NCBI GenBank assembly: GCA_043808285.1
Contig: JAZDFA010000007.1
Span: 129,187 to 193,186 of the forward strand
Length of the DNA: 64,000 nucleotides
Source: an archaeon
GTDB lineage: Archaea > Nanobdellota > Nanobdellia > Pacearchaeales > DTIR01
Reading direction: 5' to 3'
Each line of letters starts with the position of its first letter. Positions within the stretch are counted from its first letter, which is position 1. This document shows positions 7,842-37,592 of this stretch, one piece after another. The notes under the pieces are model-generated. The model was not told the origin of the DNA and made no database searches. It saw only the letters and a program-made list of their open reading frames with translations. The translations under genes were made by a program, and so were the position numbers.

Positions 7842-8110
7842 TAGATTATGATTATTATGTCAAGAACACTTGACAAAACTCGTGTGTTCTTGATCATCCT
7901 AAAGTTGCCTGCTAAATCAGTATTCAGCAACTTTATGATATTGAGTTTTATGGGGGGTTTCCTGGGTCGAGGAGGAAGAAAGTGATTAAGAATAAGCTGT
8001 ATGCTAAGTACTCTGTTGCTTGCATTTTTATTACGCCCGGAGAGGTGGGGGATTTGGGTGGGGCGATAGTTGGGGAACTTGAAAGGGAGTTCGGACGTGG
8101 GAGTGTGTGA
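7842..8110 (+). pseudogene. Decayed copy of the last ~190 bp of the NUMOD3/PD-(D/E)xK nuclease gene, interrupted by an 81-bp hairpin element
   Basis: TAGATTATGATTATTAT / ATTGAGTTTTATGGGGGGTTTCCTGGG...AAGTACTCTGTTGCTTGCATTTTTATTACGCC...GGGAGTTCGGACGTGGGAGTGTGTGA is collinear with 4834-5020 of the intact gene. The reading frame is not preserved upstream. Confidence 0.75.
7859..7939 (+). mobile_element. Hairpin MITE-like element (IS200/IS605-derivative-like), copy A
   Basis: It is inserted right after TTAT. Stem 1 pairs TCAAGAACAC (7860-7869) with GTGTTCTTGA (7884-7893). Stem 2 pairs TAAAGTTG (7900-7907) with CAACTTTA (7928-7935). It is absent from the homologous position of the intact gene. 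Confidence 0.7.
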
Positions 8111-12094: not shown

Positions 12095-12453
12095 AGCTCG
12101 TTATATTTCTTATTACTCCCCTTCGCCTTTTCAACGGGATATTTCTTTTCGTTCTTTTCCAGCTTCTTATTTAACTCTGTTGCCAAGTCTATGTCATATT
12201 TTTGGGCAAGCCTGATTAGAAAGTATAAAACGTCGGCCATCTCCTCGGAGATGTGCTGCTTTTTCTCTGGATTCTTGAACATTTCTTCTATTTCTTTTTC
12301 AGATTTAAACCTGAAATGCTCTAGAAGCTCTGAAGCTTCGGTAATAATGCCTATTGCAAGGTCTTTGGCTCCGTGATACTGGTCCCAGTCCCTGTCTTCG
12401 CAGAATTTCTTTACTTTTTCCTTTAGTTCCTGAATGTTGGTTTTGTGGTCCAT
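12091..12453 (-). CDS. MazG-like (DCTPP1-type) nucleoside triphosphate pyrophosphohydrolase
   Basis: 120 aa. FCEDRDWDQYH..KDLAIGIITEASELLEHF....EEMADVLYFLIRLA....DL......KLEKNEKKYP matches the all-alpha MazG/dCTPase pattern. Its stop lies within 4 nt of the DUF2075 start. Confidence 0.85.
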   Translation of the reverse strand: MDHKTNIQELKEKVKKFCEDRDWDQYHGAKDLAIGIITEASELLEHFRFKSEKEIEEMFKNPEKKQHISEEMADVLYFLIRLAQKYDIDLATELNKKLEKNEKKYPVEKAKGSNKKYNEL

Positions 12454-12522
12454 GTTGCTACAAGAATTGTTGGATTTATAGGGTTTTCGATAGGATGGAT
12501 AGAGAGGATATTTTAAATAGAT

Positions 12523-13257
12523 TTGTTGAATTGCTTAAGAATGGATAAATTAAAGAGAATAGTATCTGATAGGCAATGGTATCACACTTCAGCACCACTA
12601 AAGGTATTTGAAGGAAGACTTAAAGATATGATATTTTTAGAAGGAACTATCCTTACACAAAAAAATATGAATTCTTCAACTAAAAACGAAGCAAGAAAAC
12701 AATATGTAATTATGTTAGTTACATGTTATGAAACATATACTAGGGAAATGTTCAAAATATTGATTAATGAAGAACTTGTTGCTATTCCTAAAATAAAAAA
12801 GATGAAGGATGTAAAATTCGCAATAGAAGAAATTGAATATATAAAGAAAAATAATATAGAGTTATCTGAGTTGCTAGCAGAGTACATAAACTTTCAAAAT
12901 TTTGAAGAAGTACTTGAAATATTCAAAAATTTCGGATTAAACAAAAAAATAGATGAGAGTTTAAATAATCGGGATGGAGTTATGCCACTGCCAGATTCTA
13001 TTTTTAAGAATAAAAAGATAGATAGCGAAACTTTCGTAATTGAATTCTTTAAACAGATGACACTACATAACAAAATAGACAAAGAATACCTCTTTCATCA
13101 AATTAGGCTATTATTAGGAATAAGACATAAAATAATCCATAAGAATATTGATATAACCATTGAACAAGAAGACCTATTAACATTCACTCTTGCGATCTAT
13201 GAAATTGTTATGATACTAGACAGGTTCGTTCAAGACATGACATCCTCCCCACCCTAA
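12523..13257 (+). CDS. HEPN-like (RiboL-PSP/Abi-like) protein
   Basis: 244 aa, all-helical. The C-terminal LLLGIRHKIIHKN contains an Rx4H HEPN motif. It is divergent from the MazG-DUF2075 operon. Its last codons run into the IS200-like element. Confidence 0.4.
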   Translation: MLNCLRMDKLKRIVSDRQWYHTSAPLKVFEGRLKDMIFLEGTILTQKNMNSSTKNEARKQYVIMLVTCYETYTREMFKILINEELVAIPKIKKMKDVKFAIEEIEYIKKNNIELSELLAEYINFQNFEEVLEIFKNFGLNKKIDESLNNRDGVMPLPDSIFKNKKIDSETFVIEFFKQMTLHNKIDKEYLFHQIRLLLGIRHKIIHKNIDITIEQEDLLTFTLAIYEIVMILDRFVQDMTSSPP

Positions 13258-13943
13258 AGGTTTGATGCTGATGCATCAAATCCTCACTTCGTTCGGAGTG
13301 GGGTTTCCATGATGGTGTTCTTCTTGATTCAAGATATAATTTCTCACAACATCTTCTTGAACAAATCCTACTGAAGCTGCAAACTTGCCTCTGCTCCATA
13401 AATGCCCTTTGGGATACCTTAATCTTGCCTTTGGATTTTTCTCAAAGAAAAGTTTTGCAGATAATCCTTTTAAAATTAGCAAAACCTTTGATGCAGACAT
13501 ATTCAAAGAAACTTGCACTTCACAATGAATATGCTCTGGCATCACAGATAAAACAATAATTTTTATGTTATGCATGATTGCTGCCCTTCTTATGCAAGCG
13601 ATGCAAAGATTTTTTTGCTCTTCTTTAGCAAACATTTTGTAGGCATACTTTGATTTCCATTCAAGATGAAGCATCATCACCCCAACAGAATGAGAGTAAT
13701 GAGCATACTCATGTTTTTTATTTTCTGTATAGCTCCCGCTAAGTTGTATTTGTGTTTCCATTTTTCTCCGCACGGGGCGCGTTGTCGCGCACCGTAAAGT
13801 TTATTATCTGAGAGAAAGTTACAACTACATCTGATGATTTTCAGGGAGCTGCAACAAGCTCTCCCTGAATTATAATTTCTAAAGTAGAAAAAGATTACCG
13901 CAAACGCACTACTCCAGCCTAAAGGCTGGGGATTTCTTCTTAG
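13258..13943 (-). mobile_element. IS200-like element (boundaries approximate)
   Basis: tnpA is flanked by hairpins. On the 3' side: TTTGATGC-TGAT-GCATCAAA (13261-13280). On the 5' side: GCGCG-TTGT-CGCGC, CAGGGAG..CTCCCTG and CCAGCC-TAAA-GGCTGG (13786-13930). I saw no terminal inverted repeats, as expected for this family. Confidence 0.5.
13276..13773 (-). CDS. tnpA: IS200/IS605-family Y1 (HUH) transposase TnpA
   Basis: 165 aa. It has the HUH motif PEHIHCEV, LKGLSA, and LWSRG...SVG.....V.NYILNQ with the catalytic Tyr, collinear with IS200 TnpA. Confidence 0.85.
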   Translation of the reverse strand: MRRKMETQIQLSGSYTENKKHEYAHYSHSVGVMMLHLEWKSKYAYKMFAKEEQKNLCIACIRRAAIMHNIKIIVLSVMPEHIHCEVQVSLNMSASKVLLILKGLSAKLFFEKNPKARLRYPKGHLWSRGKFAASVGFVQEDVVRNYILNQEEHHHGNPTPNEVRI

Positions 13944-13996
13944 TTAATTAACGTTTTAGCAGTTATAGAGTAAGGCAGTTGATGGGTATTTTTAGG
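13944..13996 (-). repeat. Dispersed intergenic repeat (IGR family); the only inverted copy in the window
   Basis: The reverse complement reads CCTAAAAATACCCATCAACTGCCTTACTCTATAACTGCTAAAACGTTAATTAA. Confidence 0.7.
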
Positions 13997-14017
13997 GTAG
14001 GGATAAATGGAAAATCA

Positions 14018-14097
14018 TTTCTGCAAAACTAAGGGAAAAACAAATCTTCTAAGAACTAAAAACCTCTCCACCCCAGTCCTAACTTATAAAATTAAAC
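14018..14097 (+). repeat. Dispersed intergenic repeat (IGR family), degenerate forward copy
   Basis: TTTCTGCAAAACTAAGGGAAAAAC...CTAAAAACCTCTCCACCCCAGTCCTAACTTATAAAATTAAAC. Confidence 0.55.
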
Positions 14098-14131
14098 AAA
14101 GCTTTTTAAATAACAGAATATAAATTATATA

Positions 14132-14842
14132 ATGAAAAAGTTTATGTTAATAATTTTCTTCATCACCCTTGGGCTGATGCTATCACTTGGAGTACATGCA
14201 CAGAATTATGGAGAGAATAAAGATAATTCTAGTAAAAACAGTGATTATAAAATCGAAAATAAAACCCAGTACGAGAACAACTCCAATCACAACGAATCTG
14301 GACAGGGGAGTAATAATGAGACAAATAACAGCAGGGGTATTGGGCAGGAGTTAAGCGCCCAGATAAGAGAACTGAAAGGAGAACTTAAAGAAGGCAACTA
14401 TACAGGGTCTTTAGGCCAGCTTCTTAATGTAAAGCAGCTAAGTTCAGATCTTAGAGAGTTAAGAGTCAAAAATGTTTCTGCTGAGACTAATTTGAACGTA
14501 ACTAGGGAGCAGATTAATGAAAGAACAAAATTAACCGTTAAGTTAAATAATGGCAAAGAAAAAGAAATAAAGATAATGCCAGATACTGCATCTGAAAGAG
14601 CATTAGAATCACTAAAGTTAAATTCTTGTTCCTCAGAAAATAACTGCACAATTGTTTTGAAAGAGACTGGCGTTGGAACTAAAGATAATTCGATAAAATA
14701 TGAGATTCAGATAGAGAGGCATGCAAAGCTGCTAGGACTATTTAGAATTAAGATAGCAGAAAGAGCAGAAGTTGATGCAGAATCCGGAGATACAAAAGTA
14801 AAGAAGCCCTGGTGGGCATTTTTAGCAGTTGAAACCGAGTAA
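14132..14842 (+). CDS. Secreted or surface protein, Asn/Ser-rich N-terminal region
   Basis: 236 aa. It has an N-terminal signal-like hydrophobic segment (MKKFMLIIFFITLGLMLSLGVHA) and no recognisable domain. Confidence 0.45.
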   Translation: MKKFMLIIFFITLGLMLSLGVHAQNYGENKDNSSKNSDYKIENKTQYENNSNHNESGQGSNNETNNSRGIGQELSAQIRELKGELKEGNYTGSLGQLLNVKQLSSDLRELRVKNVSAETNLNVTREQINERTKLTVKLNNGKEKEIKIMPDTASERALESLKLNSCSSENNCTIVLKETGVGTKDNSIKYEIQIERHAKLLGLFRIKIAERAEVDAESGDTKVKKPWWAFLAVETE

Positions 14843-14866
14843 TATTCAGAATTCTTAAAAACACTT

Positions 14867-14957
14867 ATGTCACGTAAATTAACAACCCTCCAAAAGAAAA
14901 ACCCTGCTGCAAACTCCTAAAAATACTCCGCGTAACCTTATTCCTGTATTTAACAGG
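14867..14957 (+). repeat. Dispersed intergenic repeat (IGR family): a tail module plus one unit
   Basis: ATGTCACGTAAATTAACAACCCTCC is followed by CTGCAAACTCCTAAAAATACTCCGCGTAACCTTATTCCTGTATTTAACAGG. Confidence 0.7.
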
Positions 14958-15002
14958 CAATTTAATAATAAGCTTTATTAATAGATTTTTCAAGTGTTAT
15001 TC

Positions 15003-16738: not shown

Positions 16739-16989
16739 TCTGCAAAACATTGATTAATAATTATTAATTTAGTGGGCGGCTTAAAGGTGGGGGGAAGCAA
16801 AGATGGGGCAGGTAAGGGATTCTAACAGGAAATTTTCTTGGATTTTTCTAGGATAAAAGAGAATTAGGGCTCAATGCCTATTTAAAAAATTCAAGTGTGA
16901 AAGAAAAAATCTTCTACAAACCCCTAAAAACCCACCACGTAACCCTGCCCCTATACTGCTAAAGAAGGATACAACAATTAACAACCTCC
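16739..16989 (+). repeat. Dispersed intergenic repeat (IGR family): a short unit plus a long unit
   Basis: TCTGCAAAACATTGATTAATAA, then TTTAGTGGGCGGCTTAAAGGTGGGGGGAAGCAAAGATGGGG...AATTCAAGTGTGAAAGAAAAAA...CACGTAACCCTGCCCCTATACTGCTAAAGAAGGATACAACAATTAACAACCTCC. Confidence 0.75.
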
Positions 16990-16997
16990 CAACAACT

Positions 16998-18272
16998 TTA
17001 TGATGCTAATCTCTTAATCAATTCATCGCTCTTTTTCATTCCGTCCTTTATTCTGTCTTTAAAGAATTCTTTTGTTTCATCAAATTGCTGTTTGTACCCC
17101 CTTGTATCTCCATGAGCGATTATTGAAGCCCATTCCCTTACAGCAGTATGGAATTCCAAATCATCTCCCCTTATTCTTTTGTCAAACAGTGCTGCATTAA
17201 CAGACTCTTCAAGCATCCCCCTATTTCTAAATAAATATTCGGCTATTCCCAATCTCAGCCTGAAAGGAGGAGTCTGGCATATCAGATTCTTGTAAGGGTT
17301 TATCTTTAATTGATGCCACGCATCAACCATTGATAATATGCTTAGATGAGAGTTTGGCTTTTTATCTATCTCTTCTCCTAATCTGAACTCTCCCATTATT
17401 TTATCTTCAAGCAATATTTTGGAGTCCTTATTCCCAAAAACAAACTCTCCTGATTTCTTTACCCTGTCTTTGAATGCAGATTCATTTTCCTGAATCATCA
17501 GTTTGAACAATTCAGATTCTGAATCTGCATATTGTTTTATCTGCTCTCTTGCAAAAGGATTAATGATTGCAAGCCCTGAGTAAATATGGGATTTCCCCCC
17601 GTAAATTCTAAGAGTCATCAATACCTTGACATTATCAATCCCTCCAACATAAGAGGCATTTTCCCAGGGGTAGACAATTGCATTTTTCCATGCAGTTCCC
17701 ATTGCCTCAAATCCCATATGAGTAACTGCCTGTGTATCTGCAGTAACTTTGTCATGCTCTTTGTAATCTTTGATTTCTATAATTTTAGAGCCCAGCTTCT
17801 GGAAAATTTCTATCGCTCTTTTATAAGCTTGCTCAGAACTTCGATGCCTTATAACTGCCAGACTCTGCCCAACAGGGCTGATTGTTGGTCCATGCAATGA
17901 ATGGCATGTTACTATATTAGCATCTCTTGGCAGATATCTCTCAAAAGCTTCTATTTCAGGAGTTTTTACAGATGTCTGGCCTGCAACGATAGCCCCACTT
18001 TTTGTTGATGGGCCAAATTGTTTTGCTACTCTGCCAATATTCTCCGCTTCTACAGAATAGAATATCAAATCACTTCTTCTTGAAACTGCCATACCGTCAT
18101 CAAGAATATGAATCTCCATCCCCTGCAATTCCATTTCTAACTGATTTCTCTTCTCAGGCAAATCACAGCCATTAACTCTGTAACCTTTTCTGGCAAACTC
18201 TTTTGCATATAACTTGCCCATATCTCCCAAACCAATAATTCCTATTTCCATAATTAATCTCTCAGAAAACAT
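16998..18272 (-). CDS. tyrA: Prephenate dehydrogenase (fungal TYR1-like type)
   Basis: 424 aa. It has the IGIIGLGDMGKLYAKEF NAD(P)-binding motif and a long C-terminal domain as in TYR1-type enzymes. The likely start is the internal MEIGIIG (18251). Confidence 0.75.
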   Translation of the reverse strand: MFSERLIMEIGIIGLGDMGKLYAKEFARKGYRVNGCDLPEKRNQLEMELQGMEIHILDDGMAVSRRSDLIFYSVEAENIGRVAKQFGPSTKSGAIVAGQTSVKTPEIEAFERYLPRDANIVTCHSLHGPTISPVGQSLAVIRHRSSEQAYKRAIEIFQKLGSKIIEIKDYKEHDKVTADTQAVTHMGFEAMGTAWKNAIVYPWENASYVGGIDNVKVLMTLRIYGGKSHIYSGLAIINPFAREQIKQYADSESELFKLMIQENESAFKDRVKKSGEFVFGNKDSKILLEDKIMGEFRLGEEIDKKPNSHLSILSMVDAWHQLKINPYKNLICQTPPFRLRLGIAEYLFRNRGMLEESVNAALFDKRIRGDDLEFHTAVREWASIIAHGDTRGYKQQFDETKEFFKDRIKDGMKKSDELIKRLAS

Positions 18273-33443: not shown

Positions 33444-33483
33444 AAAAAGGTTATAGCTATTTTTCACATCAAAAAAACATGAG

Positions 33484-33638
33484 TATTACCGCACCTTAAA
33501 AGGTGCGGTTTGTGTGTTTTTTGGATGCAAGGAAATTCTTTTGAATTTCCGGCACAGAAAATCCAGTAAGATTTTCTTGTGCTCAAGAACACGCGACTAC
33601 ACACTTTAAATGTGTAGTTTTAGTCAAGTGTTCTTGAC
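33484..33638 (-). mobile_element. Hairpin MITE-like element, copy C (longer variant, minus orientation)
   Basis: On the minus strand it starts after TTAT with GTCAAGAACACTTGAC...CGCGTGTTCTTGA. Further hairpins follow (CTACACA..TGTGTAG, GAAAATC..GATTTTC, GGAAATTC..GAATTTCC, CCGCACCTT..AAGGTGCGG). It ends in ..GCGGTAATAC. Confidence 0.6.
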
Positions 33639-37409: not shown

Positions 37410-37493
37410 GTCAAGAACACTTGAAAAAACTCGCGTGTTCTTGATCATTCTAAAGTTGTTGTGTGCAGACAATAACACTTAACAACTTTATAA
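37410..37493 (+). mobile_element. Hairpin MITE-like element, copy B
   Basis: It starts after TTAT (37406-37409). The stems are TCAAGAACAC..GTGTTCTTGA and TAAAGTTGTT..AACAACTTTA. It is collinear with copy A at 7859-7939. Confidence 0.65.
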
Positions 37494-37592
37494 TTAGACT
37501 AAACTATATATTCAATAAGAAAAATGTTTTTAAATACATAGAGTAATGATTTCTTATTCACAAAAAGGTGTTTATAATACGAGGTTAAAAAA

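Follow-up and report, generated by a model that had tools for sequence, protein, structure and literature searches.

A probable complete IS200-type insertion sequence in the tail of a dispersed repeat in a DPANN archaeal genome

When a Y1 transposase gene stands beside inverted copies of an abundant intergenic repeat, is it the partner of that repeat, as a REP-associated tyrosine transposase (RAYT) is the partner of a bacterial repetitive extragenic palindrome (REP), or does it belong to an ordinary insertion sequence (IS) that lies next to the repeat? This question is raised by a locus in a 64,000-nt stretch (the window) of contig C7 of a tiny DPANN archaeon, whose genome comprises 865 kb in 15 contigs with 35% GC and approximately 88% coding sequence. 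The minus-strand open reading frame (ORF) at 13276-13773, the only Y1 gene in the window, encodes a Y1 transposase, TnpA (Pfam Y1_Tnp, PF01797, 1.2e-22), and copies of a dispersed ~72-nt repeat lie upstream of it. Our best explanation, to which we give a probability of approximately 0.85 as a whole, is that 13237-13943 is a complete, bounded element of the IS200 group (IS200/IS605 family, tnpA only). This ordinary IS200-type element would have inserted at a TTAA in the AT-rich tail of one repeat copy that overlapped the last nine codons of a HEPN gene.

The first-pass annotation of this locus had read the ORF as a Y1 transposase with intact HUH and tyrosine motifs, the only one in the window, and as a classical IS200 TnpA rather than a RAYT; Pfam, NCBIfam and the alignment with PDB structures all agree with this reading. 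The protein scores 79.8 bits with the NCBIfam IS200/IS605 model NF033573 (cut-off 55) and 30.7 bits with the RAYT model NF047646, below the cut-off of 80. Its PDB matches are exclusively IS200/IS605 TnpAs (Sulfolobus 2f4f and 2ec2, ISDra2 2xm3 and IS608 2vjv), and the solved RAYT structure does not appear among them at E <= 1. Both the HUH motif (EHIH) and the catalytic Tyr in ..RNYILNQ.. align with the solved TnpAs 2f4f, 2ec2 and 2xm3. The protein thus has the HUH motif and the single catalytic Tyr (Y---Q) of an IS200-group Y1 enzyme and falls outside the TnpA-REP class. Its true start is likely the ATG at 13761, judging by the relative in G023, which opens with the same ATGGAAA.

The ends of the element were set from seven junctions in this genome and six related copies from other Woesearchaeota assemblies (Table 1). 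The right end is seen at four junctions in the genome (window, C5, C13 and C14) and in five related copies, and the left end at three junctions (window, C3 and C14) and in five related copies. Read along the element's top strand, the ends are TTAA^CTAAGAAG...GGATGTCAT^, with the caret marking the boundary. TTAA precedes the left end in 3/3 copies of this genome and in 5/5 related copies, all copies finish in ...GGATGTCAT, and the sequences beyond the right end differ among the window, C5, C13 and C14. The right flanks (GTC, TTA, TTC, TTT, GTT) do not repeat the left flank, so that insertion is 3' of a fixed tetranucleotide without target duplication, as in the IS200 group.

In IS608, a 4-nt guide located 5' of each hairpin reads the cleavage site (AAAG/TTAC and GAAT/TCAA, with contacts A16:T-3 and A17:T-4; PMC5934647). 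PMC3597680 likewise describes guide reading of the cleavage sites in IS608, and treats linker length as critical. We derived a positional pairing pattern from the IS608 guide and cleavage sequences and the contacts in PMC5934647, and applied it to the sequence only. The pattern maps AAAT to TTAA and GAAA to TCAT, and both are observed exactly; the predicted cleavage sites are therefore complementary to the 4-nt guides, and we placed the ends at 13943 and 13237, giving 707 bp, because the two predicted tetranucleotides are found there. The base after TTAA (C or T) varies with the IS lineage and not with the flank. This, together with the restoration of the HEPN reading frame upon deletion of 13237-13943, supports the placement TTAA^. 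An alternative left boundary, TTAAY^, was dropped, since the guide rule gives TTAA, Y varies by IS lineage, and only TTAA^ restores a conserved Leu of the HEPN protein.

The HEPN gene provides the independent view of the empty site. Removing 13237-13943 restores its end to ..FVQDLINVLAVIE and a stop codon (..RFVQD-L-INVLAVIE), giving a protein of 241 aa with the reconstructed junction ...GAC^TTAATTAACG... Leu occupies the junction position in all 14 aligned homologues (14/14), whose total lengths are 238-250 aa. The first 30 nt of the inverted repeat copy adjoining the element are the original last nine HEPN codons plus the stop. The gene has lost these nine codons, a variable tail, and has received six IS-encoded codons in their place; the conserved core and the RHKIIH motif are intact. 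The first-pass annotation had suspected a 3' truncation of this gene: the 3' end is indeed altered by the adjoining IS, and the extent is small, confined to the last nine codons. An orthologous empty site was not found, the nearest HEPN homologue (P0002, 83% identity) lying in another gene context without the repeat.

Similar subterminal hairpins occur near both ends on the same strand, and terminal inverted repeats are absent. In the related copies, the left end reads TTAA^(C/T)T(A/G)A..AAGAAAT - C(T/C)CCAGCC TTTA GGCTGGAG, and the right end reads GGAAA - C(T/C)CCACCC TTTA GGGTGG(A/G)G - AGGATGTCAT^. Across copies, the right hairpin takes the form C(C/T)CCAC..CC-TTTA-GGGTGG(G/A)G. The stems co-vary across the six related copies: the left hairpin shows the compensatory change AGCC/GGCT to ATCC/GGAT in L014 and L017, and the right stem is CCGCAC/GTGCGG in L014 and CCCCGC/GCGGGG in G023. 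In L016 and L013, the right end is a plain hairpin, CTCCACCC-TTTA-GGGTGGAG, at the place where the window copy has its composite hairpin. The first-pass annotation had marked four hairpins, and all are present (13261-13280, 13772-13795, 13840-13869 and 13912-13931). In three of the four, the folded stretch is more stable than nearly all shuffles (z = -3.5 to -3.9), and the stretch with 13772-13795 is the weakest (z = -2.0; 9/200 shuffles folded as well). By analogy with IS200, this last hairpin would control translation. The inner hairpin at 13261-13280 shows compensatory variants in L015, L014 and G023. The 37-nt insert that the right hairpin carries in this IS lineage (window 13253-13297) supplies PNEVRI, at the C-terminus of TnpA, together with the stop codon, and on its sequence looks like a nested mini-insertion that TnpA tolerates.

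From the sequence and the IS608 model, transposition may be pictured as follows. A TnpA dimer would bind the two similar hairpins with 8-bp stems and TTTA loops on the top strand, in a peel-and-paste mode as in IS608. Of the 4-nt stretches preceding the hairpins, the left one, AAAT, would pair with the flanking cleavage site TTAA, and the right one, GAAA, with the terminal cleavage site TCAT. The IS would leave as a single-stranded circle joining ...GGATGTCAT to CTAAGAAG..., the resealed donor would join ...GTTCAAGAC to TTAATTAACG..., and the circle would re-insert 3' of TTAA in single-stranded DNA.

A BLAST search with the locus found at least three near-identical full copies of the IS in the genome, two of which are seen just at contig-end junctions, together with two relics. 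As contigs stop within the IS, the pairing of these junctions is inferred. The right end is matched where C13 ends, where C14 begins and in a 182-bp relic on C5 (C5:5852-6033), and the left end where C3 begins and where C14 ends; an internal relic lies at C7:102998-103260. The right-end 138 nt are 100% identical in three copies; the left-end 136 nt are the same at the junctions on C3 and C14, and the window copy departs from them at five positions, which is why only this copy was assembled through. Overall, the compared ends are 96-100% identical, and the element is probably active, as far as its sequence indicates. Several near-identical and partial copies in one genome are typical of the IS200 group. 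A RAYT gene is usually single and immobile within its repeat family, whereas here at least three copies with identical ends stand in different flanks. No other kind of Y1 gene was found in the genome apart from the IS copies. The first-pass annotation had called the gene lone, which holds for the window and not for the genome. It had also proposed counting tnpA copies, on the grounds that many identical copies with ends unrelated to the repeat would speak against a partnership with it, and such near-identical copies are what the count returned.

The internal relic on C7 and the relic on C5 are 93% and 95% identical to the IS, and the former carries stop codons. These two decayed fragments indicate that the IS has been present in the lineage for some time. 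C14 (8845 bp) finishes at both ends inside identical IS copies in direct orientation. A plasmid carrying one IS was rejected, as C14 encodes housekeeping genes (a gatA-like amidase, a DHH phosphoesterase, rubrerythrin, a HAD hydrolase and a large surface protein). Most likely, C14 is a piece of chromosome bounded by two direct IS copies, and this 8.5-kb segment is likely a substrate for deletion or inversion by recombination between them.

The six related copies (L013-L017 and G023) encode TnpAs with 80-85% identity (five copies) or 61% identity (G023). TnpA homologues were detected in 10/60 relatives and in 0/4 from the same family. By sequence, the IS belongs to a clade present in several Woesearchaeota-type DPANN genomes. 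One related copy, 81% identical, lies alone on L013 (JBBTTI010000027.1, 1024 bp), a contig binned as 'Patescibacteria group bacterium', which is probably mis-binned rather than a case of cross-domain transfer.

We then compared the IS with the dispersed repeat. The repeat unit, TTTCTGCAAAAC..CGTAAGCCTTACTCCTAACTGCTAAA..ATTAACAA, is ~72 nt long and occurs in ~100 copies, or arms, in the genome by iterated nhmmer (117 at a looser threshold), 95% of them intergenic. It shares no sequence with the IS interior or ends in a genome-wide BLAST search. Neither a hairpin with an 8-bp stem and TTTA loop nor a guide was seen in the arms in scans that do find the IS hairpins and those of a second repeat family described below, the hairpin scan giving two weak hits in arm-rich stretches and many in that family. 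Nor does the repeat have the form of a REP, a short hairpin whose 5' tetranucleotide (GT[AG]G or similar) is conserved. We infer from these observations that the repeat is not a TnpA substrate of the usual kind.

All three left junctions of the IS (3/3) follow ATTAA at the same point of the repeat tail, which argues that the repeat beside tnpA reflects target choice and not a REP/RAYT-like partnership. The left flank is AAAACGTTAATTAA^ in the window and C14, and CGTGATTAA^ in C3. The nhmmer model recognises the arm in the window left flank (7.6e-9), and the right flanks of C13 (2e-13) and C5 (5.7e-7) are inward-pointing arms. As repeat tails contain only 109 of the genome's 1414 intergenic TTAA sites, the probability of 3/3 by chance is P = 4.6e-4, and that of at least 2/3 is ~0.017. 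The picture resembling a RAYT locus would arise when the IS enters an arm tail or, possibly, the middle of an arm doublet; the target bias would follow if the AT-rich apex is exposed when two arms fold back, or if only insertions in harmless DNA survive.

The window holds 17 repeat copies, 16 forward and one inverted. The first-pass annotation had noted a single inverted copy at 13944-13996, and the model match at 13944-13994 is significant and the sole minus-strand copy. For the forward copy that it had placed at 14018-14097, the model matches the first 25 nt only, and the remainder is decayed. The gene was also said to be bracketed by the repeat pair; at the window copy, both repeats lie on one side. 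Beside the window copy the repeat is thus one-sided, and the other junctions, on contigs that break inside the IS, show inward-facing arms at the left as well as the right side of the element. The proposal that TnpA services the dispersed repeat in trans finds no support, since the IS ends are unrelated to the repeat, the repeat has neither hairpin nor guide, and the adjacency is accounted for by the choice of insertion site. TnpA does not look like the enzyme servicing the ~72-nt repeat.

Several points weigh against this explanation. Only three independent left-end junctions are available; of these, the C14 flank matches the repeat model in the tail only (E = 0.26), and the arm at the C3 junction was recognised by eye, the nhmmer hit in that flank (2.1e-7) being a neighbouring inverted arm. 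The predicted cleavage positions come from comparison combined with the IS608 rule. Given the compactness of the genome, part of the bias could stem from insertions persisting where they do no harm. The repeat is expanded only in the genome with the multi-copy IS, as a causal link would also predict: the sequence model gives 83 hits here, none in 59/60 relatives, and two weak hits in one same-family genome. Finally, inverted arms often contain strings like TTTAGGTGTGGGG, loosely similar to the 3' half of an IS hairpin.

Alternatively, the IS might have no active preference for the repeat, entering any single-stranded TTAA, with only insertions in harmless AT-rich repeat DNA surviving. The high coding density and the share of intergenic TTAA sites in repeat tails fit this proposal, as do the related IS copies elsewhere, which have no recognisable copy of the repeat in the flanks inspected, and the second repeat family, members of which land in repeat modules too. 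Against it, the chance probabilities given above are low even among intergenic TTAA sites, the flanks have more in common than TTAA (AAAACGTTAATTAA twice and CGTGATTAA once), and the window copy hit a coding 3' end. We therefore regard the absence of any preference as rather unlikely.

A RAYT-like role of TnpA, spreading the ~72-nt arms as doublets similar to REPINs (hairpin-forming REP doublets) with the flanking repeats as cognate substrates, is improbable. In its favour, inward arms stand at the left flanks of the window and C3 copies and at the right flanks on C13 and C5, tail-to-tail and head-to-head arm doublets can fold as hairpins, the repeat is abundant only in the genome where the IS is multi-copy, arm orientation is strand-biased within contigs (C7 29+/8-, C12 0/7, C13 9/1), and the genome has no other Y1 gene. 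However, TnpA fails the RAYT model, tnpA occurs in several copies and moves by its own ends, which bear no relation to the repeat, and the arms show neither a short hairpin with a 5' guide nor stems with TTTA loops. Moreover, the flanking arms vary between IS copies while the IS itself is 96-100% identical, and the IS always stands at one fixed point of the arm tail, where its own predicted target, TTAA, is found. That TnpA has a second, RAYT-like role, amplifying the ~100 lineage-specific arms besides moving its own IS, is equally hard to credit. If true, it would represent an archaeal stage between an insertion sequence and a REPtron, the unit of a RAYT gene and its REPs, comparable to the intermediate proposed for class 3 Y1 proteins (PMC6006769). 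That the adjacent arm is part of the mobile unit, by read-through or an alternative left cleavage site, is suggested by the 15 identical flank bases shared by the window and C14 (AAAACGTTAATTAAC, where C is the first IS base) and by AGCAG-TATAGAGTAAGGCAGT shared by the window and C3, but is most improbable, as past 15-45 nt the three flanks diverge like ordinary repeat copies, against 96-100% identity in the IS, a repeat subfamily that occurs elsewhere without the IS has the shared strings as its consensus, and related IS copies have unrelated flanks up to TTAA.

The arms themselves show further regularities. They gather in certain regions, such as C7 90-200 kb and C15 0-20 kb, and their strand bias extends to C15 (10/2) and C6 (5/0). 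GC skew follows gene strand and gives no replication axis with which the bias could be compared. Their orientations with respect to neighbouring genes are distributed evenly over four classes (17, 27, 26 and 25 copies), on which ground a general role as promoter or terminator was rejected. An attC-like integron array was also rejected, as the single tyrosine recombinase lies on C15 at 95 kb, far from the clusters, and genes are oriented at random with respect to the arms. Doublets comprise eight tail-to-tail and eight head-to-head pairs; the tail-to-tail pairs fold as long imperfect hairpins with TTAA mostly near an AT-rich apex. An Rfam scan of 12400-15000 found no known RNA family. The first-pass annotation had looked to relatives carrying the repeat without a Y1 gene as a case against the link, and none was found among the genomes searched, which are distant and incomplete. 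G-rich inverted arms (for example, in the region of C8:17295 and at window 13990-14010) hold strings like TTTAGGTGTGGGG and TTTAGGGTAGGGA that loosely resemble the loop and 3' half of the IS right hairpin (TTTAGGGTGGGGAGG); they may be due to chance in G-rich sequence or reflect a common ancestry. When inverted, the conserved repeat core reads GAGTAAGG and includes TAA, and at the HEPN gene this TAA is the original stop codon. Where genes converge on the tail of an arm (for example, the arm at 16912-16983, beside the gene ending at 16998), the median gap is ~40 nt, and some arms overlap the stop codon. Repeat copies thus seem to have remodelled gene 3' ends.

We also found a second repeat family, a double-hairpin MITE (miniature inverted-repeat transposable element) of ~85-170 nt, with 48 hits genome-wide for a model of its right module. 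Full-length copies carry the hairpins CTACACAC-TTTA-GTGTGTAG and CCACACCC-TTTA-GGGTGTGG, with nested stems and many compensatory variants, and one copy carries CTCCAGAT-TTTA-ATGTGGAG. The MITE and IS hairpins are alike in their 8-bp stem, TTTA loop and A-rich 5' side. The MITEs insert 3' of TTAT or TGAT and finish in TGAT. Nearly every copy combines the right guide CAAA with the element end TGAT, and the left guides AAAA and CAAA go with the flanks TTAT and TGAT in 9/12 copies. The base at -3 of the flank covaries with the first guide base (A with T in six copies, C with G in three, with three exceptions). The case for the guide rule in the MITEs is suggestive, by sequence, the copies not being independent of one another. 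These double-hairpin elements have the features of palindrome-associated transposable elements (PATEs) and other IS200-type MITEs, namely the lack of a transposase, IS200/IS605-type hairpin ends, a fixed 5' flank and guide complementarity. One MITE copy is situated within the dispersed repeat's upstream module, at GGAGAATCTGTGTTAT^, and a weak MITE match (C7:103364-103484) lies ~100 nt beside the first IS relic.

TnpA is the genome's only candidate enzyme for the MITE family, and the MITEs are plausibly a better candidate than the ~72-nt repeat for mobilisation in trans. We lean slightly towards the view that this TnpA mobilises them. The MITE linkers are ~21 and ~22 nt, against 12 and 10 nt in the IS. 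The right-module model finds 14, 2, 1 and 1 copies in four same-family genomes, in none of which TnpA was detected, and among the 60 relatives, whose genomes are incomplete, 2/10 with MITEs also show TnpA. As the genomes are incomplete, co-occurrence neither proves nor refutes dependence of the MITEs on TnpA.

Table 1. Coordinates of the IS200-group element, its parts and neighbours, and the MITE copies in the window
Feature	Position	Strand	Remarks
Probable complete IS200-group insertion sequence, 707 bp	13237..13943	-	Top strand is the window minus strand
tnpA, Y1 HUH transposase	13276..13761	-	161 aa from ATG at 13761; GTG at 13773 would give 165 aa
Target tetranucleotide TTAA, retained in left flank	13944..13947	-	IS inserted immediately 3'
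Left-end linker CTAAGAAGAAAT, 12 nt	13932..13943	-	Last 4 nt are the left guide
Left guide AAAT	13932-13935	-	IS608 rule predicts TTAA, as observed
Left-end subterminal hairpin CCCCAGCC-TTTA-GGCTGGAG	13912..13931	-	Folding; presumed TnpA binding site
Second left-end hairpin, 9-10 bp stem	13840..13869	-	Folding; positional equivalent in G023
GC-rich hairpin	13772..13795	-	Just upstream of ribosome-binding site and start codon; positional equivalent in G023 (GCGATT...AATCGC)
Right guide GAAA	13304..13307	-	Directly 5' of right hairpin; IS608 rule predicts TCAT, as observed
Right-end composite hairpin	13247..13303	-	Outer stem CCCCAC/GTGGGG and CC-TTTA-GG around 37-nt two-hairpin insert; folding
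Inner 8-bp hairpin TTTGATGC-ATCA-GCATCAAA	13261..13280	-	Holds tnpA stop codon
Right-end linker AGGATGTCAT, 10 nt	13237..13246	-	Closes with cleavage site TCAT
RiboL-PSP-type HEPN gene, chimeric tail	12541..13257	+	Pfam PF18735, 9e-7; 13237-13257 (MTSSPP and stop) from IS right end
Inverted repeat arm	13944..13994	-	nhmmer model positions 14-69, E = 6e-6 genome-wide; AT-rich tail supplied TTAA
Head of decayed forward repeat copy	14019..14043	+	4.1 bits, model positions 2-24; direct-repeat family D10
MITE copy	7859-7939	+	
MITE copy	33468-33638	-	
MITE copy	37410-37494	+	

Taken by its sequence, the element has every feature of the IS200 group that we compared and lacks three of the four of a RAYT/REPtron, the fourth, flanking by inverted repeats, being seen on one side only at the window copy. 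It resembles IS200 of Salmonella in its size (~700 bp) and in carrying tnpA only. With IS200 and IS608 it shares a transposase of the Y1 HUH type, subterminal hairpins that are similar at the two ends and lie on one strand, the lack of inverted terminal repeats and target duplication, and insertion 3' of a fixed tetranucleotide. Its right linker is 10 nt, as in IS608, while its left linker is 12 nt and that of IS608 is 19. Unlike IS608, which uses TTAC and TCAA, it has the target TTAA and the right end TCAT; the pattern of guide and cleavage pairing, deduced from the IS608 sequences in PMC5934647, is alike. It differs from both in the 37-nt two-hairpin insert of the right hairpin, in the Tyr motif YILNQEEHH, in its DPANN archaeal host, and in having all its genome copies in one repeat family.

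The likeness to the RAYT/REPtrons of E. coli and Pseudomonas (PMC6006769, PMC2817692, PMC3333891) lies in a Y1 HUH protein beside an abundant, doublet-forming intergenic repeat, sometimes facing inward. REPtrons do not transpose as a unit, and their tnpA-REP is usually single-copy (PMC6006769); here, by contrast, the protein scores under the RAYT cut-off, its gene occurs in several copies that move by ends of their own, and the repeat is without the guide-plus-hairpin unit of a REP. The REP-targeting ISs of bacteria (IS1397, ISKpn1, IS621, ISPpu9/10 and ISPa11, of the families IS3, IS110, IS4, IS256 and IS5; PMC1525189) are alike in that their copies all stand at the same point of a palindromic repeat dispersed between genes. 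IS200 itself is near a REP in 1/25 copies (PMC1525189). The present case differs from these ISs in that an IS200-group element, transposing as single-stranded DNA, would do so in an archaeon. The MITEs are like the PATEs of Haloquadratum walsbyi (PMC3119063) in being transposase-less with IS200/IS605-type ends; they are not simple deletion derivatives of the IS, having other linkers, guides and targets, and they also occur in relatives where TnpA was not found.

With these comparisons, the annotation of the locus can be corrected to a probable complete, bounded IS beside a HEPN gene that is short of a variable nine-residue tail only. The element offers a worked archaeal case in which a pairing pattern derived from IS608 predicts both cleavage sites, TTAA and TCAT. 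With an IS200-group element that repeatedly lands at a single point in a dispersed palindromic repeat, the IS families known for REP-targeting would rise from five to six, a modest extension based on three junctions. The locus also suggests that a Y1 gene beside inverted repeats is insufficient for calling a RAYT.

The Tyr motif of TnpA (window 13276-13310, at the C-terminus) is YILNQEEHH, that is, Y---Q--HH, and is also found in L002 and L016. Y---Q--HH is the signature of TnpA subclass 1.2, described without IS properties and as absent from Archaea (PMC6006769). Here it sits in a multi-copy IS with typical ends, and the Trp motif (WS) of the same protein matches subclass 1.1 instead, in a comparison by motif alone.

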